A stretch of DNA of 64,000 nt from Minutocellus sp. GHC0000111. Taxonomy: Eukaryota. The notes under the pieces were generated by a model. That model did no database searches. It was not told the origin of the DNA and saw only the letters and a list, made by a program, of their open reading frames with translations. The stretch covers positions 3,472,001 to 3,536,000 of the forward strand of contig OZ361256.1 in assembly GCA_977018835.1 (NCBI GenBank), in the 5' to 3' direction. How positions within the stretch are numbered: position 1 is the stretch's first letter; every line of letters begins with the position of its first letter. Position numbers and translations under genes: made by a program. Below, one piece after another: positions 13,123 through 42,626 of the stretch.

Positions 13123-13334
13123 GTCCGTCCGGCCAGGCAGTGGTCAGTCGGCAGCTCTAGCACGCATGCGCATGATCTTATCTTGAGACCAGACACTTCA
13201 TGGCTTTCTGGTGCAGGCAGCAGCAGTGCAGCAGCTCCTCGCTGACTCTTTTTTCCTTTTCTTCCTTCATAGCATCTTCCTCTTCTTTTTTCGTCTAATT
13301 CTGCAACAACCTTACGAGCTCGTACACTCCAGCC

Positions 13335-13370
13335 GTACCTAGGTAGCCTACCTAGGCCTAGGTAGGGCCG
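13335..13370. repeat. Palindrome patch in a divergent promoter region
   Basis: Perfect 20-bp palindrome CCTACCTAGGCCTAGGTAGG 13347-13366, preceded by TACCTAGGTA 13336-13345. Confidence 0.85.
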
Positions 13371-13449
13371 TCGAGCAGCACATGATATCGGGGGCCGTTG
13401 CATAGCATAGACGTAGCAGATACGCGCACAAACACAGTAAGCAGGCACC

Positions 13450-14923
13450 ATGGCGTCGAGCAGCGTGGGGATTAGCATCAATGGAGCAGGCAGCAGCAGA
13501 TCTCCTCGAGGCTCCAGCACCACCAGTCCATCGCGGAAACGACCCCATAATTTCATGAGGCAGCAAAACGAGGATCCAAAACTCCACTCGTCCTCCCTCA
13601 CCCGCTTGATGGGGAAGCTCATCATTATGGCCCAAACCAAGTACTGGTGCCGGCTCACTTCCCAGGTGGTCTGTGCCCTGGTATGCGTGGGGGTGCTCCA
13701 GCACTGTAGACGTCAATCTCTTCATCTTCAATCTCGTACGCATATTCTTCGGGGGCACGCCATTTCCCCGGGTTGTTGGCTACTCGAAAGCCACAGGGCA
13801 CGTCATCCTGTTTGTTCCATGTAATCCACCTAGCACGGTTGAAATCGTACGAGCAAATACAGCTGCAGAAGCTTCGGATTGCGACGCAGGTTCTTACCTC
13901 CATTGCCACCATGCATAACTTCGATAAGGAGGGCCAGGCTTCGATCATTTCATCTCGATCTTGCAACCCCCTATCATTGTCATACTTGTCCAGTAAGTCG
14001 TTGACAAAGTTCTCAATGTCCCCACCATCGGCGTAATCCACCACGGCGGTCACACCACAGAATCCATAGATTTTCCCAGTCCTTCCCCGTCGTCCGCCTC
14101 CTCGACTCCGTGTAATCGTGCCAGTAGTTCCACCAGTGCTTTTAACGCTTGGTCTTGAGGACCTTCATCGACCCATCGTACTCCATGATGGCAAAGATGT
14201 CCACCCAACCGCCTTTGTTAATCAAGAAGGGGACCGGATCGCCCTGACCGAAGCTCTCGTGAATGCCGTTGCATTGCGGAAACGATGTCTTCTGCCAGTC
14301 ATGCTGATAGTCGCACGGAGCCTCCGGAACTTCGCGCATGTACCGACCTATCTTTTCCGACCGTTTCCGCCTCTCGGTCCGTCTCATCAAGGCATCGACC
14401 TTGTCGGACATGGGCTCGTCCAGCTCTGCACCCTCTCGTAGGGCTAGCCTTTCTCCTGCCGCCCTGGCCTTGTCCTGACGGATGGGACCTCCCCCGTCGG
14501 CCCACCCTGTGTCGGGACTAAAATAGTAAAACAATGTCCGCGGATGGACCGGAGGAGATGTGATGTTGAGCACATTGGGCGCCGAGGTCAGCCGTTCCAT
14601 TGCCAAGGCATCTCGTCGGTAGCGATCAAAGTTCCGATCAGTGAATTCATGCCTATAATTATTTGCTGACACTGAAGAAGCCTTTTGATGACGAGGACCA
14701 AAAGGATGCCAAGAAGCTGGTGATGAAGGGGAAGCGGCCGCCCTTGCCCAAGCGATTTCGGGAGCCGACGCATCGAGTGGATCTGGTACTGCTCAAGGCA
14801 ATGAATTGGTGTTGGACTCATGATCCAGCCGAAAGGCCAAGCGCCCGTGCTGTTGCAGATCTTTTGGAGAATGAACTTGGCATCATTGAAATAAAGCAGA
14901 AGCACGGGGGAAGAATAGATTAA
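13450..14923 (+). pseudogene. Diatom-type membrane-anchored protein kinase, internally inverted and scrambled, catalytic loop deleted
   Basis: N-terminus with TM-like helix on + (13450-13706) and kinase C-terminus (WCWTHDPAERPSA) on + (14660-14923). Internal subdomains (DWQKTSFPQCNGIHE, VLKT, AMERLTSAP, IYGFCG, DFNRAR, RAPEEY, DVYS) are on - and out of order. Confidence 0.85.
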
Positions 14924-15059
14924 CGAATAGGAGTCATTGATAATATGCTACAAGCACGCATTGCACCTCACTGCTAATCGTTGCTACGTGGCAATGTCCA
15001 ATAGGATACTTGTATCACCTACAACAAACGAAAGAAATTGTCCTATACTAGTAACAATG

Positions 15060-15965
15060 TCATTGTCTATCCTTTAATGGTGCTTCCGTCGTCATTTCTA
15101 CCTCGTCCATATCGGCATCATCCGCAGCTGAAGCACTGCCATCTTTTTCTAATTGGACATTACCCCCAAGCTCCATCACATGGCTTTGGTCGCTGGCCTG
15201 TTTGACGTATTCTGAAGCTTGGTAAGCGAGCCTCTGTTTCTCTTCCGACGTTAGGTCTCTCAACTTCTTCGCTGGATTACCGGCCCATAGCTCACCGCTC
15301 TTCACAACCACATTCCGTCCAATGACGGCACCGGCAGCGACGAGACTTTGAGCCTCCACCTTTGATCCGGGATTGAGGATGGACCCCATGCCGATGAGGC
15401 AGCCATCTTCGACCGTCGCGCTGTTGATGTGAGCTCCGTGTCCGATTGTCACTCCATTACCGATGAGACAGTGATCCTCAACGGCTGTGATGACGCAGCC
15501 ATCCTGCACGTTCGTGTTCGCGCCGATATAAATTCCTCCGCCATTGGCGGTTCCGTCCCAGCTCAGATCCTTCTGCGACGATCGTTCGTCTCGAGAGAGG
15601 CCTCGCCACGTGTCCTCGGCGTCCGACCGATGTCCCATTCCGTTGTTCGATCTGTCGCCTCTGAGTACTGAACCATACCAAACCGACGATCCTGGACCTA
15701 TGCGGACTGTCCCGATCAACGTGGAACACGGCGCTATGTAGGCAACATCCTCGGACACCTCCGGGGCTCCTCTGCGGAGGAGAGGCATCTGGTTCCTGTT
15801 GCGGGACAAATGATCATTGTACCTGTACGGGGGATCGCCCAGACTTTTGGTTGTGGTTGCATGAGTGATTCCCCAAACACCGGCTCTGTCGATGGCTTGC
15901 CCCGTTTCGCGAAATGCCCGTCCGAGGACTTGGCGAAGCCGAGCCACAATCGTTGGTGGGGGCAT
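15060..15965 (-). CDS. Gamma carbonic anhydrase-like protein (mitochondrial complex I type, left-handed beta-helix)
   Basis: 301 aa; GRAFRETGQAIDRAG N-terminus, SSVWYGSVLRGD, NVQDG, TIGHG, hexapeptide repeats, LWAGNPAK; not all three Zn-binding His are evident. Confidence 0.9.
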   Translation of the reverse strand: MPPPTIVARLRQVLGRAFRETGQAIDRAGVWGITHATTTKSLGDPPYRYNDHLSRNRNQMPLLRRGAPEVSEDVAYIAPCSTLIGTVRIGPGSSVWYGSVLRGDRSNNGMGHRSDAEDTWRGLSRDERSSQKDLSWDGTANGGGIYIGANTNVQDGCVITAVEDHCLIGNGVTIGHGAHINSATVEDGCLIGMGSILNPGSKVEAQSLVAAGAVIGRNVVVKSGELWAGNPAKKLRDLTSEEKQRLAYQASEYVKQASDQSHVMELGGNVQLEKDGSASAADDADMDEVEMTTEAPLKDRQ

Positions 15966-16433: not shown

Positions 16434-19400
16434 TCAACCACGACGAAATGCATCCGTCAGTTTCCTCCACAGACTATCGGTCGTCCACCAACTTGAACTT
16501 TCCCTGTCGTCCTCACAGGCCTCCATGCAGTTCAATACATAGCGGAATTTACACGCCTTTGTTGCATCGCCCTTGTTGCCGCCGGCAGCGCATGCATCTG
16601 GAATGGTCAGAGCAGATTCGTCCGTTTGGTAGAAAATACCCGTTGCAGTCTCGTCTACCGCATAGATATCTATGAGAGCAAGACCTTCTGTGCACTTTGC
16701 TGTAAAGGCGTTGACGATACCACAATCAGGCCTGGAGGTTTTGAAGCACTCCAATTCGCCATTCTCGGGAACAACGAAATCAGCAGCGATCCAATCCATC
16801 TTGTTGTTGGTAGAAGAGCCGTAGTTGCACTCCTTCCACACCTGTGACAGAGTGAAGGTGACAGTCTTGCCGCTGCGTGATATTATATCAAGAGGAAGCT
16901 TTTCTGAAGGATTGCACTGATCTGCGCTTAACCTCCGAACATTTGCAATCGGGACGCCCATCCTGCAAGAAGGAATGTCGTCGTCCTTGGGCGTGTCGAC
17001 TTCTTCGGTCGCCGCCTTTGTTTCGGATGATTTGGAGGACCGTGGCTGTGTCAATTGGACTTTGGAGTTGTGCTTCTTGTAAGATGAAAACAATTCTTCC
17101 ATCCTACGCTCCATCAATCTGCGGGTGCTTGGGCAAATGGGTGCCCCACCATCGGCGCCAAAGACAGCGGGATTATCCCAATTATTTGATACAGAATCCG
17201 AATCGCGAATGCACATATAGTCTTGGTCTGCCACGGACGTTCCGTTTCCATAGTAAGCGGTTCCGTTGCCCACAATATTTCCACCGTCGGGGACGGGAGA
17301 AGAAGGATCGCCGTCGAGGCAGTTGAAATCAGCACAGCAAATATTCTGGGAACCAGTGCCTCCACATCCTGCAGAGCCACAAACATTCTTGCATGTGTTG
17401 CCGTTGCAACTGACCTGGCCATTATCGGCAATACAGCTATTATTTCGAAGGTCGTCGGCGAGGCCTGGGCAGTCATATAGGCCCTCTGCAATGAAAACAA
17501 AGAAAGGAACATGGATGGGTGAGTTCATGAATCAATACATTCAAACTTTCATGTGTGCATGTGAGCATGTGACCATCACAAAAGGAAGAATGAAGAGGAA
17601 ATAAAGTACCAACTTTCCCATTGCTAACTCACTTAGTCTCTGACCGAACATGCAAAAAGTCGCTGGAACATCTGTGCCTTGACTGTTGAAATCCGAAAGA
17701 CAGTCGCCGCAATTGACGCTGCAGGTGCTGGTAGCTTTGACTCCAATTTGGGTCCTAACACAGCCACTTGTAGCGGGACAGCACTTGGCACGATTGTCAG
17801 TTTTTCCAGTGACAACGGCATAAGCTTCGTCGCACAAGGTCTTCTTGTCCGCAGTACAAACGCCTGAATCGACGCACGTCCCATTTGTATTAGCGCCAAC
17901 AATGATGCAGTCTGTATCGACAGGACAGGTCGTATTCGTTGTGGTACAAGTCTGACAATTACTTTCGTTGTTTTCGTCGACATTATTGCATTCAGCGTCA
18001 ACTTTGTTGTAATCCGATGCATCGGGGTCTGTTTCGTTGTATGTGGTGCAGGCCCTTCCACAATCGCAAGCAAATGAACACCCAACATCATTGCTTGCGC
18101 TTTGGCCAGTGCCTGCGTCGTTTCTCACTAAACAACCCTGGCACTTGCATCTACAATTACCTGAATTATCACGATCATCAAAATTACAAATTCCTCCACC
18201 ACAGTGCGAATCGCTGTAATAGAATACCAGAAACAAAAGAGCATATCATGTAGGTGAGTATTGTGAAATGAAAGTTGAGAAGTGTTTGAGAGACAACAAT
18301 TTATTACGGCTTTGTAATGATGTAAAATTTGATTCATTCCTTCCACACGAAATCATATCTCCACTGTTGTCCACTTTGTAACCGGAGATCGAGGGTTGCA
18401 TGCTTGGGGCGCTACTTGGGTACAGGCTCGGTCCAGCGGAAGGTGATAACGAGGGCATGTCACTGGGTTGGCTAGAAGGGAGCAGCGATGGTGAAGCAGA
18501 AGGCGATGACGACGGATCGCGCGTCTTTGGGGTAGGATTGCCACTTGGCGAAGAAGACGGTCTTTGACTTGGCTCGGCGGATGGCACAAAACTAGGCGAT
18601 GACGACGGAGATGAGCTCGGCTCTTTCGAAGGATGTGAGCTTGGTACCTGGCTAGGATCACTGGACGGTAAAAGACTAGGTTCGTCAGATGGCACAACAG
18701 ATGGCGACGAGGTAGGCTCGCTCGACGGGTCAGAGCTTGGTGACAGGGATGGATTGGAGCTCGGATCGTCAGAGGGAGAGCTGCTGGGAACATTCGATGG
18801 CATGGAACTGGGTACCGTTGTAGCATCACCGATGCGAAGAAATTGAGGGTCCTCGTAATAACCAGAACTTTCACAAGTTCCGTTGAGTGGAGGGCAGGAC
18901 CGTGGCTTACTGTACATCACATCGAATCTGTAATCAGGACAACTAGGGAGACCGGATGAACCGCAGGGATAGATGGCGACTTGGCGAGTGAAAATCTCCT
19001 GCTTCACAGTCCCATCTGCTATGGTGACATTCTCGACAACATCAGTAGTATCCAAAGTAAAATACGACGGATCCAGGGCAAACCCTGGAGCAGAAAATTT
19101 CTCATGAATTTCGAGGGTGTGGTCGACATCATCATCATTGTGAATGTAGTACACAAAGTGAAATTCAAGGACGACAAAATCACCAGCGAGGATTTCATTT
19201 TCGTATAACTTTCCAACCTCAACGCAAAATCTTTCAGATGAGAGCCCAGTTGTTGCATTCGTATATGTGAAAGAACAATTGACACCGGCAATATAAGGGC
19301 AAATTTCTCCACAAGAAGGAGAATTACTTGGGGAGGAAGAAGGGTATGAAGACGGATCACTGCTCGGCTCCGACGACGGCATACTCGACGGTGAGCTACT

Positions 19401-22400
19401 AGGCTCAAGAGACGGTACGTCAGTTGGCTGTCCCGTCGGTGGCTTCGAAGGCATCGACGATGGAGATGAGCTAGGCTCACTGCTTGGATCAGACGACGGC
19501 GACGAGCTAGGCATACTCGACGGTGACGAGCTGGGCTCACTGCTTGGCTCCGACGATGGATCCGAAGACGGATCACTGCTCGGCTCCGACGACGGCGTAC
19601 TCGACGGTGAGCTACTAGGCTCAAGAGACGGTACGTCAGTTGGCTGTCCCGTCGGTGGCTTCGAAGGCATCGACGATGGAGATGAGCTAGGCTCACTGCT
19701 TGGATCAGACGACGGCGACAAGCTAGGCATACTCGACGGTGACGAGCTGGGCTCACTGCTTGGCTCCGACGATGGATCCGAAGACGGATCACTGCTCGGC
19801 TCCGACGACGGCGTACTCGACGGTGAGCTACTAGGCTCAAGAGACGGTACGTCAGTTGGCTGTCCCGTCGGTTGCTTCGAAGGCATCGACGATGGAGATG
19901 AGCTAGGCTCACTACTTGGATCAGACGACGGCGACAAGCTAGGCATACTTGATGGGTCAGAGCTCGGTACGGACGAAGGAGCAGGCGTCGGACCTCGAGT
20001 TGGAGGGCTCGTAGGATCTGATGAAGGGTTTGTGCTCGGCCTTGAAGACGGTACAAATGAAGGTCTATCGCTCGGCCCATTCGTCGTGTCTAGATCTGGT
20101 GGCGGATAAATAAATTGTGGAGGGTCAAGATCACCAACAACCACAATCGTCACCGTAGCCTCATCCCTACCGCCTTTGCCATCCGAGATGGTGTAAGTAG
20201 CCGTCTCGACGAACGTCTCACCGTCCCTCAGCCCGTCGGCATACTCCGAAGCGGAATAGGTCATGCCACCGGTCTCAGGATTGACCGTCATCTCGCCACC
20301 TGACGGGAAAGACACCGAAAACGTCGAGGATGGATTGCTGATCGGGCCAGTGCCATCGCCCTTATCAAAACCAACGATGGTGAGCTTGTCCGTCTCCGGA
20401 TCACTGTCGTTGGGAGCAATAATGTTGGACGAAACGGAGGGATTGTCCGCAGTGACGCGATACGAATCATCCTCCGCCACGGGAGGATCGTTCTCACCCG
20501 TGATCTCGATGCAAACCTCTGCCGATGCGGATGCTCCGACGACATCGCACACCAAGTACGTGAAGCATACTTCGGCGGTCTCGCCCACACCCAGACTCTC
20601 AAAGTCGCCGTTCGAGGTCGAGAAAGTGTAGCAGCCATCGCTGTTGATGGAAAGCGTGCCGCCCTCCGGCATCTGTCGAGGACCACCACCGACCGGAATC
20701 AAAGCACCGGAGGAGTCTACCACTCCGCCATCACAAAACGTGAGGCTATCACCCTCATCTGGATCCGAATCATTCTCGCTGCGCGCAAGGGAAAGCAATT
20801 ATTGCAAGTCGAAATCAAGCATGACAGAGATTGAATGTGAGAACAAAGAAACAAAATATATGCATCAGGAGGGTACCGGACCTCGATACGTCGACCATGG
20901 GCGGCTAGCACAATGCATGAATACATAAAGACATACATACATACAACGAGAAGACAACACGAGAAAAGGCGAAGTTGTAACTCACAAGACACAGTCCGAG
21001 ACATCATTGCCCTCCGGCACAGTCTCGCTGTCATCCTCGGGGACAGGTGGATCATTCTGGCCAACGACGGTGAAGGTGACCGTCGCAATGTCCGTTCCGC
21101 CGTCCTCATCGGTAATAACATACGTAAGGATGTCAGTGATCTCTGACCCTGGTCCCAGAGCTTCAACCTTATCACGATCGGGAGTGTACACAATTCCACC
21201 CGAAACAGGATTGATCCTGATTACACCATTTGTCAGATCGTAGTCTATGCCAATTGCAGGCTGTACCGGCGTGTTTGTTCCACCATTTGGAGTGATGGAT
21301 GTGATGGTGAGGTCTCCCAATTCACCATCAGGATCGCTGTCGTTCTCCAGGATTTGACCAATAATAGTGCCGCCACCAGCTTCGAGCTGATCGACCGTCC
21401 GGGCGTAGGAGTTGTCCTCGGCAATCGGAGGGACATTGGTAGGCTTTGGGGTAGGCGCGGAACTTGGTTTGCTTGATGGGCTATCGATCGGTGAATCGGT
21501 AGGTGGTGGGGGCGGTGTTTGAGGGTTGACAAATTGAGGAGGGCTAGCAACGATCGTTACAGTCGTTGTCGCGGGTTGGCCGGCAGCGTCGACAATTTCA
21601 TAGTCAAAGACTTGTTCGTATGTATCCCCAGCTGGAATATCATTGATAAAGGCGCTGGTATCGAAAGTCATCTCTCCTGTTGCAGTATTGATAGTGACGA
21701 CAGCCTCCTTGCCTTTACCGTATGGTGTCATGAAGGTTGTGGTGATAATATCGTTCCCACTTTCGTCCGGCTGGGGGAACACCGCCACAGGATCCTCGCC
21801 AGGCATTCCAGGCTTTGTGATCTTCGTGACCGTGAGATCATCTCCATCTGGATCAGTATCATTTTCAAGAACAATGTTTGCATTGATAATGCTGTTGACC
21901 TTGGTGGCAGTGTTGTCAGGGTTGGCAACGGGCGGACTATTGCCCCCCTCGATAGTAATTGTCACGGTCGCCATGGCAGTCTGACCCATTGTATCGACAA
22001 TCTGATAAGTGAATGTCTCTACGAACGTCTCTCCAGCTGGGATGCTGGCAACCACATCACTGGCATCATAATCCATCTCGCCAGTCAGAGGATTTATCGT
22101 GACAACACCACCGCTGGGGAATGTAGCAGAAATAGTCCCCCCAGAAGGGGCGATATCAGTCATTTCTCGATTCGGCCCACCGGGGATAGTTATCTTGGTA
22201 ATGCTAATAACGTCACCGACGTCAATATCGAAATCATTGTCCAAGATATTATCCGAAACGGTGGGATTCGTAATGGTGGCCGTGTAGTCATCATCGATAG
22301 CTACGGGGGGATTCGGGCCAGGAGTAGGAGGAGCAGGAGGCGCGAAATCCGGATCCTCTGGTTCCTTGCACCGATTGGGCAACTTATCCACCAACGTGTC

Positions 22401-24599
22401 GTAGTCCTTGTCGTTCTCTGGCAACTCCTTTGGGCATTCGGGCTCGGGAGGTGGTTCCATATGGCTGCAAATGTAGTAATCATCAGGAAGGATCTGGTAG
22501 TTGGTAGAGGTACATATTGGCTTTACGTCGACATTGATAAGCTGGGGGCCGGCGGGTGTCGATGTGGGCAGCGGCTTAGCAGTACCCTTGGAATTACCCT
22601 GAAGGTCGCGCATAGCATCGTCGAAGGAATCGTCGAGGTCGCGTCCCTCGTCCTCAGCGAAGTCAGAATCAGCATCGAATGAGTCCTCCTCAGCGTCATC
22701 GTCACCTTCCACGAGATTGCGTGGACGTCCATCTCGATGCTTCTTGTAGGTATTGTAGTCATCGCTCGACGATCCACCTTTCCCACCACTACCACCGCCA
22801 CCAGCCTGGGTACGGTACGTCGACGCATGTCCACCCTTACCCTTACCACTGCCGGAGTTGTTATCAATGGGGAGAGGCGGCAATCTCTTCTGACCGGAAG
22901 GTCGTTCTTCGTCCTCCTCGGCAGGTCGTGTCACAATCATGCTTGGCGGCGCAGGAAACTTGCAGGTGAAGGATTCGCGGCAAACATAGTCGGGTCGATC
23001 GGCACAGAGGGCAGGACAGACAAACTTCATGTCCTTACAGAGATCATGATCTTCAGGAAGGATGTAGAGCTTGTCCTTGACATCGCCGGGCGAAACGAGC
23101 TGAGGGCCGCCTCCGCCCTTGGACTGCTCGGCGGCACGACGGTTGCCATCGTTGTCGTCGTTGCCCTTCCTACCGAATCCACCCCGCTTCGCAGACCAAC
23201 CCTAGAGCCAATTCTTTGTCTTCTGGACGCTGGAGGCAGGTTTGGCAGGGGAAAAGCTAGTCTGCTGCTGCATGCTGACACTCTCGGGGATGTCAGTCGT
23301 CTGCACATTTTCCCCCGGGTAGGCACAGCGCCAACGGAGGCGAGTATCGGCAGCGATAGGAGGACCAGAGACCATCTGAGGCCCATCGTCTTCGTCCTCG
23401 CTGACGTCGGTCTCCGATTGACCACCCTTGGAGTCCGACTGCTGCTGGGCCGAGACCTGATTGGGCCGGCCAGTATTGTCGTGCTGCTCCCTTGGCGCAT
23501 CGCGCTCAACCGAGTCACCTTGGACGGCCTCCTCGGCATCGCCAGAATCCCGAGTCCTGCTGGAAGCCCTGTCGGCAAATTCCTTGTCCTCGCTGCTGCT
23601 GGAAGCATCGCCCTCCCGATCCTGGATGTGGAAAGGAAGAGCCACATTGGGAGCTGCCTTATTCCGCGTGGGAGTGGCCGTCTTCGCATTCTTCTTCTCG
23701 CGTATCTCTTCGGCTCGATCGGAGAGGGTTTGGCCACGCTTGCGGCGGCGGCGACGCCTCAGACGAAGGCGTAGCTCCTTCTTGGTCAGGGTCGTCCCCT
23801 TCTTGGTGGCACCCTCGCGATTGCGCTCCTTGGTCTGAACGTACTTGCGCTTGGCCAGGCTTCGTCCTTTCTTGGTTTTACCGTCTGCGGCGGCAGCGGC
23901 GGACTTGGCGTCGACGTCGGCCTTGGCGTCGGCCTCAACCTCGACACTTTTTGCATCAGCAGTCGAAGAAGTATCATCGACGGCACTACTGGCACTGGAA
24001 GAGTCGGCGGTAGAGGCGACGGGAGACGATGGCGACGACGGAGACGAGACGAAGAGGTTGCGGACGAACGAGACGGCGGTATCGACGAACGACGTCGCAG
24101 CGTCATCACCTTCATCTTCAACACCCGGCCGACTGGCAGCAGCCTCAACGCCAGTATCATCGTCATCGTCGTCGCCGATCAGCCCATCAAAGATGCCTTC
24201 GTCGCCTTCTTTTTCCTCATCGGGCGAATCGGCGGCGTCATCTGCATCGGACGACAGGTTGGAGAGGCCACCGAGACTGACCTGCTGGTCAGAGTCAGAG
24301 TCAGCGGCGGCGGAGGAAGCTGCGTCCTCCACAGCTACAGACGACTTGCATGTGGTCGTCGCGTCCGCCGCCTTCTTGTCGTCGTCGTTTTCGGTGGCGG
24401 CTGCAGCAGCCGATGCCGACGCTGCTGCAACAACACCTCCAGGCGACGAGGAGAGGGAGATGGCCAAGAGGAGGAAGGTCCCGAGGAGGACCATCCCCGA
24501 GCCATGTCTGCGACGACGGGCAGAAACAGCCGTCGGCGCATTGCATGTATCAGCCGGGGCACCGGCAGCAGCCTCGGCTGCTGCCAATGAAAGCTTCAT
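16434..24599 (-). pseudogene. Giant secreted adhesin-like protein: five cadherin-like/Big_9-type Ig repeats, PSSxPS stalks, Cys-rich domains; carries a premature stop and a non-canonical donor
   Basis: Exons ~24599..20986, 20778..18340, 18213..17633, 17485..16434. In-frame TAG 23202-23204 with open continuation. The intron 18339..18214 begins GA instead of GT. Repeats follow PPVAxDD..NILxNDxDPD..ETFTYxIxD..ATVTI. Confidence 0.8.
19347..19950 (-). repeat. Coding tandem repeat, 216-bp (72-aa) period, about 3 near-identical copies (PSSxPS/PTGQPTDV)
   Basis: GACGGTACGTCAGTTGG recurs at 19411, 19627 and 19843; built from 12-bp subunits. Confidence 0.9.
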
Positions 24600-34801: not shown

Positions 34802-35219
34802 TTGGCTTGTTGATGTACCGGATGGTCTGGAACTGTATCTATTGTGTGGTGGTGGCTTGACCGGAATCCGGAACGGAACGCAAGTGCACCGATCTTTGAA
34901 GACGAAAGGCAGATCTTGCGGAACCAGCTGTGCGTGCGGAACCAAACTTGCGGTCGCGCAGTCAGGACAAAGTTCATTGTGTTGACGACGGCCAGACGTC
35001 AGAGCCTGCCTATCCTCTCTGGCGATTTTTCTTGAGCTTGGCGGATTGCGCCAACCTCACACCCCTCTTTCGAGACCGCTGCAAGGAGAGGCGGTACCAC
35101 TTAAACCTCGCACAGTTGCGCCATATATTTTTAATTTGACGGCCTCGATATCCTCTCTATTGTTGGGGCTGTGCGGATCGTCTTGTACAACCCTCGCTCG
35201 CCGCGTATAAAGTCCAAAA

Positions 35220-38200
35220 ATGCCCTCCTCCAGCAGGAAAGCGAAGAAGAAAATGACACACGTGCTCGTGCCTGTCTCAGGACCATCGAGCACATCGTCG
35301 ACCTTGCTCTGCAGCGAGGAGCTCGCCCTGCCCTTTGGAAACGGCCCAAACATAGAATCGGGGGAGGGTCTGAGATCATCATCGGGCGGGAGCGTGGCGG
35401 GAAAATTCGGCCCCGACCACCGCCGACGAGCGGTGACTGGCAGCGCCGTTTTCACACCGGACGGCCAACAGAAGCTTGCAGCGACCGCGGTCGGTGCATC
35501 CCGCACAATGAAGGACCCAACGAAGACGATTGCCGGTCGCAATGCCGGTAAGATACATATTTCTGGCGGAAATGCAAGTGTCATCGCCCCGTCGCAACCA
35601 TCTTCGCCGCAGTCTCGTGCCCGAATCAAAATGCCGAACGCATTTGCGTCGGTCTCTCTCTTCACCGGGGAGGCAGACTTTGGTGGACTCTCTACGTCGT
35701 CCGAGGATATGGACGATAATGTCAGCGGCAACAGTCGTAGAAGTGCTGAGTATCAGAGCCCAATTCGTGCGACAGTTATGGGCAGAACGAATATCGGAAG
35801 TACCTCCATCAGCCATGTCGGTCCAGGACGACCGGACGCACCGTCTTTCGTCCCCGTAGAAGACGAGGAAACGTGGAAAAGTCGCTTCGTCGCTCTCTGT
35901 CTGTACAAATCTCAGCACGGTCATTGTCTCGTGTCTAGTGACCCTCGGCATAGCACTCCTTCAGAGAGGTCCTTGTCCATGTGGGTGAAACTCTGCCGAG
36001 AGGAGTATGAGGCGCTAGGTACTAGTATGCCCGACGCCACCATCAGAATGCTCACGCAGGAGCGGATTGACATGCTGGACTCGATCGACTTTGAGTGGAA
36101 CGTCAAACTTTCGTTCCCCGAAGGCATCGCTCCTTCCAACGCTACCAATACTCAGAGCCGTCACGTGAAGCCAATGTCGTGGGATGGACGCTACGACGAA
36201 CTTCTCCGATTCAAGTCCAAGTATGGAGATACCAACGTCCCGGCGCGATGGGCTAACAACCCAAATCTTGCCAAGTGGGCAGCCGAGCAGCGCCGCGAGT
36301 ATCGACGATACACTCTGGCTGATTTCCACAGTTCTCGAGGAATCACCGAGGAGCAGATCGACAAGCTGGAGCTGATTGGATTCCAATGGAGCGAGACGAC
36401 GCCCGACAACGTCGATGCCGCCGCTGGCATAGAGCCCCGTCGCCCACCACCGCCACCACCACCACCGCCGCCGCCACCACCACAGAACCAATATTCGTCG
36501 ACGACGACTCATCAGGATTCATCCCAAGAAGTGGCGACAGTTTCACCTTCGCCGATGAAGGTCGAATACCCTGCCAGGGAAGATTCCATGCTACAAAACT
36601 CTAGCACGGCGGCTTCTATCAGCAACAGCAAGAGAAAGATCACTCCCATCTCCCCTCCCAATCCTTCAGAAGATCCCGATTCCAATATCGCCGATGGACC
36701 CTACGGGCATGGGAAGGGCGAAAGTCAGGCGTCGTGGGATAAGCACCTAGACGATCTCCTACAATACGGCGAGAAGAATGGCACCTTCAGCGTGAGCAAA
36801 TCTTACCAAGGCGGCGATCTCTACGATTGGGTGCAGTATCAGAGAATCCTGTTCTACCGCGGAGAGGACGAGGGGCGAGGCAAGCTTGGGCCAGCGCAAA
36901 GAGTGCGTTATGACAAGCTGAAGATATCCGAAATCTTTGTTCCGAGAGGGGGTATGGTTGATGCACCGCCGGTCGAGGGAGACGATAACAAGTATCCTCC
37001 TGCCCCCAGGAGCTGGGACCAATCCTTTGCCATGCTCAAACGTCATTTCGAAGAAATTGGTGACGTTGATATTTACTACATTGCCGATCCTGATCTTTAC
37101 CATTGGACAAACACTGTAATGATTCAGTACCTTGAAAAGGATATCGAAGTGGACGAGTCTGCTTTGTCTGAGAAGCCCTTATCTGACGCCCGCTACAAAA
37201 AACTCAAGGATATGGGAATTGGGCGCGATTGGTCCCACAATGACAAGCTTTGGCACATTATGTTTCATAAGTTGAGCCAGTTTGAGCTGGAGAATGGTCA
37301 CTGCGAGGTGCCTGGTAGCAATACGACTCAGCTCGGTCTATGGATCTATCGTCAAAGGTATTCCCTTGCTTCCTTCATTGCGAATGGCATGAAGAGCTCC
37401 TCATTTACTCACAAGAGGAAGGCCAAGTTGGACGGGTGAGAGCTTCTTCTTCTGTCATTGGATGGTCGATACCTCTTTAATTTATTCACCCCATCTGCTC
37501 CTTACGCTAGTTATGTAGCGTGAACCCTCCAATAATTCTCACCAATCCCATTTGTGTGCCTCTCTCTTGCACTTTCTCTTGTCCTATGCGCAGTATTGGC
37601 TTCGATTGGAAGGAATATGACAAGGGATATGTCGATCCCGATGACGGCGATGACGACCAAAAGGGTAGGGCTGATAGTGTCGACCAAGACGAGAAAAAGG
37701 AAGATGACGCCGATTCGATGGATTCCATTGAAGCTCAGTCTCTCGCGGAGAGGCTTGGTTTGCCTAATGGATACACGGGAAAAGATATTGAAAAGTACAA
37801 CAACAAGTGTCCAAATTGCCAACAGACGTTCACGTCGGATCGGGGCCTCAAGTATCACATCGACAACAACGTTTGCATCAACCAGAATTATATCCCCAGA
37901 GCCCCAACGTACGACCTTACAAGAAAACAGCAGGACCATAATGACAAGTTGTGGGAAGAAAATTTTAGTGCCCTTTGTGCTTACAAAAAGAAGCACGGCA
38001 ATCTGGAGGGGGGCAGGGGCGATGATCCTTTGTGCAAATGGGCAAAGCGGCAACGATATGAATGCAGAGAGTGGATGAGCGGCCTGCACACACGTTTCAA
38101 CGCCGAGCGCAAGAGGAAGCTCGATCGGATCGGCTTTGACTTCAAGGGATACGACGGCAAGCCCATCTCCGTTCCTGGACTCAAAGGACCCAAGGGCATC

Positions 38201-41200
38201 ACCGAGGTCACAACGGCAGATCATCAATGGAATCAAAACTTCTTTAGTTTAGTGGAATTCAAGAACGAACACGGCCACTTTGAGGGTATTACTCCCATTG
38301 ATGAAGTACTTGGACGGTGGGTATACAAACAGCGGTATAATATTCGCTCGTTGATATCCGGGAAGAGCAAGGGCAACTTCAGTGTCGAGAAAAAGGAGGC
38401 CCTTGATTCCATCGATTTTGACTGGCAAGGCTATGATGAAGGATGGGAAAAATGGAAGCGGGCTTCCGCTCGAAAGGCCACTAAATCAAACTCTGCGGCT
38501 GAATCCTCAGAAGCACAGCCTCGCCTAACATCGTCGATAGATGTCCCTGAAGGTGGAGCATGTCCCGGCTGCAAGCAGGTCTTTCACAGCAAAAGTGGGT
38601 GGCTTTATCATGTCAAAAACGGGGTCTGCGGAGTTCATGCCTGCACCCGATGTCGTATGGTTTTCAAGGTTAAATGCCATAATGGATGCCCCGTCCACTA
38701 CCAATGACGATGCAGATGATGTTGTAGTCCTCGGTGAAGACTACAAATTCGATCATTGCTGCGAATGTGGCATTCTCCGATCCTGATCTTTACCATTGGA
38801 CAAACACTGTAATGATTCAGTACCTTGAAAAGGATATCGAAGTGGACGAGTCTGCTTTGTCTGAGAAGCCCTTATCTGACGCCCGCTACAAAAAACTCAA
38901 GGATATGGGAATTGGGCGCGATTGGTCCCACAATGACAAGCTTTGGCACATTATGTTTCATAAGTTGAGCCAGTTTGAGCTGGAGAATGGTCACTGCGAG
39001 GTGCCTGGTAGCAATACGACTCAGCTCGGTCTATGGATCTATCGTCAAAGGTATTCCCTTGCTTCCTTCATTGCGAATGGCATGAAGAGCTCCTCATTTA
39101 CTCACAAGAGGAAGGCCAAGTTGGACGGGTGAGAGCTTCTTCTTCTGTCATTGGATGGTCGATACCTCTTTAATTTATTCACCCCATCTGCTCCTTACGC
39201 TAGTTATGTAGCGTGAACCCTCCAATAATTCTCACCAATCCCATTTGTGTGCCTCTCTCTTGCACTTTCTCTTGTCCTATGCGCAGTATTGGCTTCGATT
39301 GGAAGGAATATGACAAGGGATATGTCGATCCCGATGACGGCGATGACGACCAAAAGGGTAGGGCTGATAGTGTCGACCAAGACGAGAAAAAGGAAGATGA
39401 CGCCGATTCGATGGATTCCATTGAAGCTCAGTCTCTCGCGGAGAGGCTTGGTTTGCCTAATGGATACACGGGAAAAGATATTGAAAAGTACAACAACAAG
39501 TGTCCAAATTGCCAACAGACGTTCACGTCGGATCGGGGCCTCAAGTATCACATCGACAACAACGTTTGCATCAACCAGAATTATATCCCCAGAGCCCCAA
39601 CGTACGACCTTACAAGAAAACAGCAGGACCATAATGACAAGTTGTGGGAAGAAAATTTTAGTGCCCTTTGTGCTTACAAAAAGAAGCACGGCAATCTGGA
39701 GGGGGGCAGGGGCGATGATCCTTTGTGCAAATGGGCAAAGCGGCAACGATATGAATGCAGAGAGTGGATGAGCGGCCTGCACACACGTTTCAACGCCGAG
39801 CGCAAGAGGAAGCTCGATCGGATCGGCTTTGACTTCAAGGGATACGACGGCAAGCCCATCTCCGTTCCTGGACTCAAAGGACCCAAGGGCATCACCGAGG
39901 TCACAACGGCAGATCATCAATGGAATCAAAACTTCTTTAGTTTAGTGGAATTCAAGAACGAACACGGCCACTTTGAGGGTATTACTCCCATTGATGAAGT
40001 ACTTGGACGGTGGGTATACAAACAGCGGTATAATATTCGCTCGTTGATATCCGGGAAGAGCAAGGGCAACTTCAGTGTCGAGAAAAAGGAGGCCCTTGAT
40101 TCCATCGATTTTGACTGGCAAGGCTATGATGAAGGATGGGAAAAATGGAAGCGGGCTTCCGCTCGAAAGGCCACTAAATCAAACTCTGCGGCTGAATCCT
40201 CAGAAGCACAGCCTCGCCTAACATCGTCGATAGATGTCCCTGAAGGTGGAGCATGTCCCGGCTGCAAGCAGGTCTTTCACAGCAAAAGTGGGTGGCTTTA
40301 TCATGTCAAAAACGGGGTCTGCGGAGTTCATGCCTGCACCCGATGTCGTATGGTTTTCAAGGCGGAAAAGAATCTTCGAAAACACGAGAAACATGTTGAT
40401 TGCAAACCATGGACGTACGAACAGGCAAAGCTCGAGGCATTAAATGCCATAATGGATGCCCCGTCCACTACCAATGACGATGCAGATGATGTTGTAGTCC
40501 TCGGTGAAGACTACAAATTCGATCATTGCTGCGAATGTGGCATTCTCGAAAAGCCCGGTGACCAAATGCTACTCTGCGACAGGTGCAATCTCGCTTGTCA
40601 CCTTGAATGTACACACGATAAGCTCACTGAAATCCCCGAAAATGATTGCTTCTGCCGTAACTGCATCTCCAAGGCAGATAAGCTGGACTATTGTATTGAA
40701 TGTGGCATAATGGAAAAGCCCGATGGTCCTCCGATGCTTCTCTGCGACGGATGCGATGTCTGTTGTCACGGTGAGTTTTTCATTACTTATTTTATTGTTC
40801 GCCTCTGCCGACTTGCCATCATAGTGCCCACTACATCGCTAACCTTTGCATTGCACGTTTCAACTCTGCTAAAATCTGCAGTAAAATGCACCCATGATGA
40901 CCTTACAGAGGTTCCTGAGGGTGAGAGCTACGTAGTACTGTTCATTTGCTTTTGGTTGTAATCTTTTCGTGCAAATTTCTTCATTCCATTTCTTGCTCAC
41001 TACAACAAACAAATGTTGCTCGCCTTCACTTTTCACTCGTTGCTCGGGATCAGATGAATGGTTTTGCAGAAAATGTACCGCAAAGAGAAATATCCGCCTA
41101 GGCGAAGCACTGGCAGTGGAGAATTATGCTCCACCCTCATTTGAGGATCTTCTCGAAAAGTTAAAAGTATTTCGCGCTGAGAATGGCCACTTCGATGTTC

Positions 41201-42626
41201 CACCCGAACTGTAGGAACTCCACCAATTTGCAGAAAAGCTTAGGGAGTCCTATCTGAAGAGGCGCAAGACTACTCTGCAGCTTGAGCACGAGGAACAACT
41301 CGACAAGATCTATCAGCTCCACCGACGAGGCCGTCATCTCCTGTCGATGAGGCCAATGTTACCAAAACGGTATCAAAATCTAGCAGCAAGAACAATAAGA
41401 AGGCTGCTGATTACATGATCTTGGGTCGGTGGTCGAAGTTAGTAGAACCTGAATGGGCTGAAATGTTGGTCAAGCTTATCGAATACCAAGCAGTCCACGG
41501 CGAGATGACCTCTCCGAAGGGGAATAGAAATCTGTACTACTGGCTTGAAAAACAGAAAGAGGACTACGTTAACAAAAAGCGCCGCTCTCCAAGTCCGATG
41601 AGCGCAGTGCAAGTCAATCTCCTTGAAACAAAGGCTGGCTTTACTTGGAAAGGCAAGGAATGTGTCATCGTCGTGCCCGAGAAGAACAACGCCAGCGACA
41701 GTGATGGCGAAGAATCTTCTTCGTCGCTTGCTGCTGGCGGTGATTCTCGAGAGAAACGTGCCGCCAAGCGAAAGCGCGACGATAGTGATGGCAGCGATAC
41801 TGATGGCGATAGTGAAAGTGAAGAGTCCTCCGCCGCTCCAAGGAAGAATTCTCAGAACATAATTCTCATCGGCCCTTCAAAGAGGAATCAAAGACCGCCC
41901 GAGTACTGTGGCCTTGGGTGCAGCCACGGCGAGCGACAAGCATCTTGGGATCGCCACCTTGAAGAACTTTTGGAGTATGGCCACGAACATGGCACATACA
42001 ACGTTAGCAAAAGGCACGGGGATGGAGATCTGTACAACTGGCTTCAGTACCAAAGATATTTGTTTTACAAAGGAGAGAGGGACGGTAGGAGCAAAGGCCT
42101 TGGACCAGCTCAGAGGGAGCGGTATGATAAATTCAAGAAGGTAGAGGTATTCATTCCTCTTGATGACTCGGAGGGACGACGAGGAGGAGGAGGGACCAAG
42201 CGCCAGCGCGACGAGAGCAACAGCGGCGAAAGTGACCGCGGCAGCAGCGACAGTGAAGAGTCATCAACTCTGCACCTGCACAAGCGTCGGCGCCAGAATT
42301 CGCAACAAATTACTCTCATCCCGCCACCGAAGAAAGGCAACCCCAAACCCCCAACCTACGACAGCGTTAGAAATGATGGTGTCAGCAAGGGCGAGAGCCA
42401 AAAATCGTGGGATATGCACTTGAACGAGCTTCTCAAATTCGGCGAGAAAAATTGCACCTACAACGTTGGGAAATCATACAAGGGCGGTGATCTGTATCGT
42501 TGGTTGCAGCATCAGAAGTGTTTATTTTATAAAGGGGAATATGAAGGAAGGAGCAAGGGCCTGGGTCCGGGCCAGCGTCACCGATATGACAAACTCAAAG
42601 AGGCTGATATTTTCGAGACGAGCTAG
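35220..42626 (+). pseudogene. Multi helicase-associated (HA) repeat protein with C2H2-like zinc fingers and tandem PHD fingers; disrupted
   Basis: Many W..(F/Y)..L..(F/Y)K..HG...VP...L..W...QR...L..IGF.W repeats and two C4HC3 PHDs. Introns 37436..37593, 40771..40881, 40921..41053. Internal 1.77-kb duplication, in-frame TAG 41212-41214, frameshift after LDKI at ~41310. Confidence 0.85.
37084..40547 (+). repeat. Tandem duplication of ~1770 bp inside the HA/PHD gene; first copy has a 77-bp deletion
   Basis: Identical ORFs at offset 1693 (37507/39200, 37554/39247, 37981/39674); offset becomes 1770 after 38670; junction at ~38777. Confidence 0.95.

Follow-up and report, generated by a model that had tools for sequence, protein, structure and literature searches.

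We analysed a 64,000-nucleotide (nt) stretch of contig OZ361256.1 (positions 3,472,001 to 3,536,000) from Minutocellus sp. GHC0000111, called the window here, and found a scrambled copy of a diatom-like membrane kinase gene at 13450-14923. Set against intact homologs, this copy falls into eight blocks that read +N -E +G -C -D -A -B +F, the signs giving the strand. We regard it, with moderate confidence, as a heterozygous null allele produced by one compound break-and-rejoin burst, a miniature chromothripsis. A preliminary description of this DNA had proposed that the gene was scrambled at very short microhomologies; the block map and the overlaps of 1-3 bases at the joins agree with this, and reveal a rearrangement more complex than was described there.

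The intact order of the gene was established from its relatives. The 171-residue piece made up of blocks B and A matched nine of these, the best being P0001 (540 residues, 97% identical), and eight of the nine were compared, with P0009 left out (19% cover, E 1e-4). All eight read A, then B, then C, with ...VLK-T/S-K/M-R at the end of A, Y-R/K-H-E/D-F...NVLN-I/L/M across B, and Y/F-G/A-x-CG... at the start of C. The reference order is N-D-A-B-C-...-E-F, with G lying between C and E by P0001 residues; this is the order that the preliminary description had deduced, and both the homologs and a contig of sequencing run X16 bear it out. Intact P0001 scores 51.5 and 52.3 bits against PF00069 and PF07714 (cut-offs 31.7 and 23.1) over residues about 262-520, and its product is predicted to be a membrane-anchored protein kinase. 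The nearest atlas clusters of P0001 are Bacillariophyta kinases. None of the four window pieces reached a Pfam cut-off, the best being block F against PF07714 (18.7 bits vs 23.1; E 0.0012). Additionally, two metagenome loci at 72-73% identity to P0001, too distant for microhomology to be read base by base, each gave a single unbroken tblastn segment, and both confirm a collinear, unbroken coding region.

Sequencing runs supplied the finer detail. Of the 24 runs listed, 20, drawn from 11 studies, contained 31-letter words of the region, and eight runs were aligned in detail: five mostly at least 99% like the window (X1, X3, X5, X6, and X8) and three 90-99% like it (X11, X16, and X17). The word shares of 0.3-0.5 in X7, X9, X10, X12-X15, and X18 were left out of account. 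X1 and X3 come from organism A, which may be the source of the window itself, and 8 of the 25 pieces per run were listed for each; X5 is a sponge metagenome of study P2, and X6 and X8 are RNA libraries of studies P3 and P4. Block borders were placed to the base with one 3,337-nt contig of X16, and tblastn with four intact homologs (P0001, P0002, P0004, and P0007) gave the identical block map in 4/4 cases, with block E-values of 4e-130 to 4e-14 that are far beyond chance. The coordinates of the blocks, and the pieces missing between them, are collected in Table 1.

Table 1. Blocks, insert and lost pieces of the scrambled kinase gene copy, with their counterparts in the intact homolog P0001
Feature	Window position	Strand	P0001 residues	Sequence and content
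Block N	13450-13697	+ (native orientation)	1-84	start codon, N-terminal tail, membrane helix
Block E	13698-13848	- (inverted, moved beside N)	400-449	DFNRAR...DVYSAG; DFG-like and APE-like motifs
Block G	13847-13947	+ (both neighbours minus-strand)	346-378	YEQIQLQKLRIATQVLTSIATMHNFDKEGQASI; YEQIQ...GQASI
Block C	13946-14068	- (inverted)	301-343	(I)YGFCGVTAVVDYADGG...DRDEM
Block D	14069-14137	-	about 108-130	TGGTTGTITRSRGGGRRGRTGK-I; X16 record positions 2893-2961
Insert GCTTT	14138-14142	no strand		5 letters at the D/A join, part of neither block
Block A	14143-14561	-	130-269	ITSPPVHPR...MKVLKTKR; extracellular/juxtamembrane part, glycine-loop region, VLK lysine
Block B	14562-14657	-	270-301	YRHEFTDRNFDRYRRDALAMERLTSAPNVLNI; helix C glutamate; misplaced ahead of A (coding strand)
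Block F	14658-14923	+ (native orientation)	454-540	YLLTLKKPF...HGGRID, stop codon
Lost piece 1			85 to about 107	82 letters in X6 record 25, 70 in X16
Lost piece 2			344-345	between C and G; 8 letters
Lost piece 3			379-399	60 letters with catalytic loop SHTDISPYQF (HTDISPYQF)
Lost piece 4			450-453	between E and F; 10-11 letters (NVLY)

The contigs of the individual runs follow these borders closely. Block N (94% identity, E 4e-43) ends in X1 and X3 contigs that terminate at 13697, rather than at the 13706 given in the preliminary description, and block E corresponds in the same runs to contigs of exactly 152 nt that span 13697-13848. The stretch beyond E, earlier taken for an intron stub, proved instead to be coding block G on the plus strand (tblastn E 4e-14); it is represented by 101-nt contigs in X1, X3, and X5, and by the opposite-strand joints 13847/13946 and 13848/13947 in X11, X16, and X17. 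With G recognised, the end of block C moves from 13898 to 13946. Block D natively precedes A and here follows it on the coding strand, and block A forms 422-nt contigs (14143-14564) in X1, X3, and X5. The placement of B ahead of A on the minus strand, noticed earlier, was upheld by both tblastn and X16, and the joints 14655>14143 and 14068>14562 that flank B share three letters each. Block F, which closes the gene, was matched with a tblastn E-value of 4e-49.

About 160 nt have been lost from the scrambled copy, in four pieces, and they are unmatched elsewhere in the 64-kb window; the intact-order contig of X16 holds the corresponding 70, 8, 60, and 11 letters without a counterpart there. The catalytic-loop stretch SHTDISPYQFIKLDGKGFVLN is absent from the window and was found in contigs of X8, X11, and X16. 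Its loss had been noted before as that of an exon: the loss stands, but what went missing is a 60-nt piece of a coding region that is continuous in the two unbroken metagenome loci. The reading frame that starts in block N enters inverted DNA and stops after 124 codons in the open reading frame (ORF) read-out. The scrambled copy cannot make a kinase.

The scrambled joins recur in independent data. Counting as firm a bridge with 31 or more letters on each side, we found firm bridges over three of the seven scrambled joins in RNA libraries of two studies: E/G in X8 (record 9, 151/100 letters), C/D in X6 (record 28, 151/69 letters), and A/B in X6 (record 30, 58/97 letters). Bridges with 27-30 letters on the short side cover N/E (X5 record 18), A/B (X5 record 23), G/C (X6 record 28), D/A (X6 record 29), and E/G (X6); the three of these joins outside the firm set (N/E, G/C, and D/A) have 29-30 letters there. 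Repeats of 31 nt or longer, which could fuse paths in an assembly graph, are absent from the locus. Since independent short-read contigs bridge the joins and no repeat near 31 nt is present, the scrambled joins are not an artefact of assembly or amplification. The scrambled order announced in the preliminary description therefore withstands both comparisons to which it was open, its junctions being found in independent runs and its relatives having the normal order.

Small differences among the runs were also recorded. X5 departs from the window at single bases (13558, 14214, 14220, 14229, 14957, and 14964) and nonetheless shares the scrambled joins, so the scrambled form seems to be present in more than one strain background. 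X6 likewise differs from the window at 13558, and X11, X16, and X17 have the letter of X5 at 14214. Gaps in the cover of X6 over the intergenic flanks (13200-13391 and 14992-15100) would fit RNA rather than contaminating DNA; uncovered parts are no evidence and were left unused, and a hole in block A of the same run (14288-14479) was likewise not counted.

Intact-order joins occurred alongside the scrambled form in all five runs at least 99% like the window, and the relatives X11, X16, and X17 had intact-type joints only, with the whole gene in intact order on a single contig in X16. The intact E-to-F join was found in X1, X3, and X6, where record 26 of X6 reads E, 10 letters, and F, followed by a run of A after 14948; the intact B-to-C join was found in X1 and X3. 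Block N followed by 82 letters without a window match and then D makes up X6 record 25, the intact D-to-A join appears as loose ends in X5, and C-B-A in intact order was seen in X8. X1 and X3 contigs break at every block border while the X16 contig reads through, which means that the assembly graph of X1 and X3 branches at each border. Depth is 156-170 for the block contigs of X1 and 196-216 for those of X3, against 61-70 and 65-85 for the two contigs with intact joins among those listed, about 35-45% of block depth, where contig depth is a rough measure that is not readable as copy number. The flanking contigs run unbranched for 1.6-4.1 kb at depths like those of the blocks (137-181 in X1, 191-229 in X3). 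From the lower depth of the intact joins, the branching at block borders, and the unbranched flanks at block-like depth, we infer a diploid in which both forms are alleles of a single locus. A short way upstream of the gene, at 13316-13321, a G>C change with four inserted letters was present at 80/169 in X1 and 89/219 in X3; this looks like a heterozygous indel and a potential marker for phasing both forms.

The joins themselves carry most of the information on how the copy arose. Six of the seven overlap by 1, 2, 2, 3, 3, and 1 bases, and the remaining one carries the 5-nt insert. The D/A and B/C breakpoints of the reference exchange partners at a 3-base ATC common to both and form a reciprocal pair, as the preliminary description had recognised for its B>A and D>C junctions and as the joints, with their three shared letters, confirm. 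The three letters shared by the end of A and the start of B were likewise found, and the A/B breakpoint keeps TAA (2-3 bases) on both sides. The longest exact repeats found in the locus measure no more than 11 nt, and none of them occupies two block ends; this rules out homologous or site-specific recombination. The first three letters of the insert add to 4 bases that match the end of block E and complete with them an inverted heptamer, AGCACTG, which indeed lies at 13700-13706 and, inverted, at 14134-14140. As a recombination signal this heptamer is weak evidence, as AGCACTG recurs throughout the window (19 copies vs 8.3 expected).

Every block is present exactly once, and the blocks tile the reference base-exactly at the D/A, A/B, and B/C breakpoints. 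Expressed as a signed permutation, the order requires at least four inversions, and all four of the shortest inversion scenarios break an earlier junction again at the same base; none of the intermediate joins was seen in the joint tables of the eight runs. Together with the lack of repeats, these features indirectly favour one burst, one event rather than several, and fit end-joining of broken DNA better than replicative copying. The block contigs of X1 and X3 are identical for both forms, and the event is therefore young relative to the haplotypes. In the mechanism we propose, a single burst of double-strand breaks would have struck inside one of the two copies of the kinase gene. The ends would then have been rejoined in random order and orientation through microhomologies of 1-3 bases (microhomology-assisted end-joining), with four small pieces lost and 5 nt gained in the rejoining, and the product would be a null allele accompanied by an intact copy.

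The likeness to chromothripsis lies in many breakpoints on what would be one haplotype, with seven new joins clustered within 13697-14658 and the intact form in the same runs, in an order and orientation that look random, in pieces that were lost while none was gained, and in joins with 0-3 shared bases and a small insert. It differs in its setting, a wild protist germ line in which the product persists in nature rather than a tumour, and in that three breakpoints are conserved to the base. Complex rearrangements that arise from single, homology-independent events have been described (PMC3638133).

Several points weigh against this account, some against its mechanism and others against its genetics. 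Replicative template switching would account for the TAA on both sides of the A/B breakpoint, and for an insert that looks partly templated, no less well than blunt breakage does, and chromothripsis as described is far larger, on the scale of chromosomes or megabases, than the about 1-1.2 kb and the pieces of 69-419 nt seen here. For the B/F join there was no independent piece among the contigs listed. Among the pieces listed for X1 and X3, none bridges a scrambled join; in these runs the scrambled form rests on the window itself, a word share of 0.95, cover of 30/30 bins, and arithmetic on two junction bins that places the scrambled joins at ~86-96 in X1 and ~123-138 in X3, assuming that the unlisted block-B contig has the depth of its neighbours. 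The roughness of contig depth belongs here as well. Both forms are present in all five of the most similar runs, which is surprising for a simple deleterious allele except in a clonal lineage or if the allele is common, and no single molecule phases either form by tying it to a distinguishing flank.

The main rival to an end-joining burst is replicative serial template switching (fork stalling and template switching/microhomology-mediated break-induced replication, FoSTeS/MMBIR), in which a stalled nascent strand that primed seven times, at microhomologies on nearby templates of either strand, would have left the same heterozygous dead allele. We consider this unlikely. Zhang et al. reportedly described small multi-junction intragenic events by FoSTeS/MMBIR in 2009. 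The 1-3-base microhomology at 6/7 joins, the insert whose first three letters extend the match to the end of block E, and the TAA kept at the A/B breakpoint would all be expected from it, and the sub-gene scale, the several joins in cis, the inverted segments, and a small, possibly templated insert are known territory for such events (PMC6292170). The reciprocal D/A and B/C joins speak the other way, as copying is not expected to conserve material in this manner. FoSTeS/MMBIR usually leaves duplications or triplications; no such copy gain is seen here, where no block is duplicated or triplicated, the reference is tiled once with blocks that abut to the base at three breakpoints, and block depths are even in X1.

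Serial rearrangement in an already dead allele, by four inversions or by an inversion with re-insertion of an A+B circle plus an inversion of G, appears improbable. Four inversions are enough to produce the order, and an inversion from B to E, the first step in three of the four shortest scenarios, gives both the B/F join of today and a join of the A end to the E end, of which the AGC or heptamer remnant at 14134-14140 could be a trace. The re-breaking at the same base in every shortest scenario and the lack of intermediate joins in the eight runs both count against this, as do the blocks identical between the forms in X1 and X3, which leave little time since the event. The circle, which the preliminary description had proposed to be excised and re-integrated, is one way of describing the reciprocal D/A and B/C exchange, but it covers part of the order, leaves block G with its opposite orientation unexplained, and is not needed, as four inversions or shattering and rejoining in one step yield the whole order without it. 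X5 record 23 and X6 record 30, both contigs of low depth, run from the A end through B to the A start across 14143-14657, which is circle- or tandem-like; both may equally be walks that switch allele inside block B, 94 nt common to the two forms, and the depth of block A in X1 is 156, with no excess over the other blocks (156-170). The A+B circle is possible and unnecessary.

The end-joining account also supposes that the two forms are alleles. A pseudogene in a recent segmental duplication, or intact joins contributed by a second strain in the cultures and samples, is decidedly improbable. Depth and branching cannot separate alleles from a very recent duplicate or a 1:1 mixture of strains, and both forms were found in 5/5 conspecific runs, as would be expected of a fixed duplicate. 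The flanks, by contrast, are unbranched for at least 1.6 kb on each side at block-like depth, the nearby indel stands at about 50:50 (80/169), as heterozygous sites in a diploid do, and no second copy (paralog) was found within the 64-kb window.

Programmed rearrangement, in which a germline-like precursor is later unscrambled or a cassette is switched, in the style of ciliates or shufflons, is very unlikely. The two forms coexist in 5/5 conspecific samples aligned, the blocks are identical between them, and short shared letters (ATC and TAA) lie at some consecutive block ends; the scrambled genes of spirotrich ciliates are similar in their permuted, partly inverted coding segments, with a few consecutive segment ends sharing short runs of letters. 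Unlike in those genes, the blocks here abut without spacers, segments are missing, and a junk insert is present. Ciliate pointers differ from the pattern found here, in which most ends share no letters or just 1-2 bases; 3 bases are shared at three reference breakpoints and none where pieces were lost. The intact form is not in excess (35-45% of block depth), and the forms stand at similar depth rather than soma far above germline, while the relatives have the intact form only. Unlike in shufflon-type invertible DNA, no repeat lies at two block ends and there are no repeated recombination sites, and the 62 ORFs scanned (of 168 ORFs of at least 110 amino acids in the window) gave no match to a recombinase or transposase family. 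The preliminary description had favoured decay over programmed unscrambling; the absence of about 160 nt, catalytic loop included, from both copy and window, the lack of spacers, and an intact form at similar depth in the same DNA runs all agree with that view. An artefact, either a misassembly or an amplification chimera in the assembly of the window, has a practically negligible chance: multiple-displacement amplification typically makes inverted chimeric joins at microhomologies, and no scrambled join is bridged in the X1 and X3 pieces listed, but the same joins stand in independently built contigs of other studies (X5 of P2, X6 of P3, and X8 of P4) and no repeat of 31 nt or more could fuse graph paths.

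In the titles and abstract openings covered by a literature search, neither such an event nor a scrambled gene was reported for diatoms. The kinase copy is unusual in the very small scale of its rearrangement, in having seven joins and no copy gain, and in persisting in natural samples.

The rest of the window has a more ordinary character. Among the 62 ORFs scanned with Pfam are many genes with helicase-associated (HA) domains, along with Sec1, Coq4, SNARE, and mitochondrial carrier genes, a content that fits a diatom-like nuclear genome. Five consecutive ORFs with the HA domain (PF03457) form a local cluster at 35211-42623, and expansion of the HA-domain family is typical of diatoms. Two neighbouring ORFs of this family (37511-38704 and 39204-40958) repeat a pattern of overlapping ORFs at an offset of 1,693 nt, with near-identical Pfam matches at residues 145-209 in both; they are probably a recent tandem duplication. 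The minus strand at 18249-23201 holds a pair of very long ORFs with PT repeats and bacterial-type cadherin-like/Big_9 domains. Finding such domains in a nuclear gene of a eukaryote is unusual, and a surface adhesin is a possible product.

The scrambled kinase copy most likely does nothing useful, being a null allele covered by the intact one. It keeps its promoter side (N) and its 3' end (F) in place, and the scrambled joins in RNA-library contigs of two studies (X6 and X8) suggest that it is likely transcribed, and this would be from its own promoter. In a transcript from that promoter, 856 nt would be antisense to the mRNA of the intact form. In Phaeodactylum, genes are silenced by antisense and by inverted-repeat constructs (PMC2724275), and the predicted transcript of the scrambled copy resembles the antisense knock-down constructs of diatoms in holding an antisense stretch; it differs in belonging to a natural allele rather than a transgene, and silencing here is purely a prediction. 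By this analogy the copy could act as a knock-down allele of natural, self-made origin, tuning or shutting off the intact partner through RNA silencing, which we consider quite improbable; if true, it would explain why the scrambled form occurs with the intact form in every conspecific sample examined.

The kinase locus offers a natural, copy-neutral rearrangement of seven junctions, resolved to the base within ~1 kb of one gene, that would be heterozygous in a wild diatom-like lineage and is visible in environmental DNA and RNA from several studies. Its seven unique junctions are a ready marker for tracking the lineage or the allele in metagenomes, and they come with a caution for haplotype-collapsed assemblies and gene callers, as the assembled haplotype here is the broken one. 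The locus would also provide a natural test for a dominant effect of an allele that transcribes the antisense of its partner. If the rearrangement took place in one step, multi-break events of this type, familiar chiefly from tumours and from loci of human disease, would be able to persist in nature and would also operate in protist germ lines at sub-gene scale.

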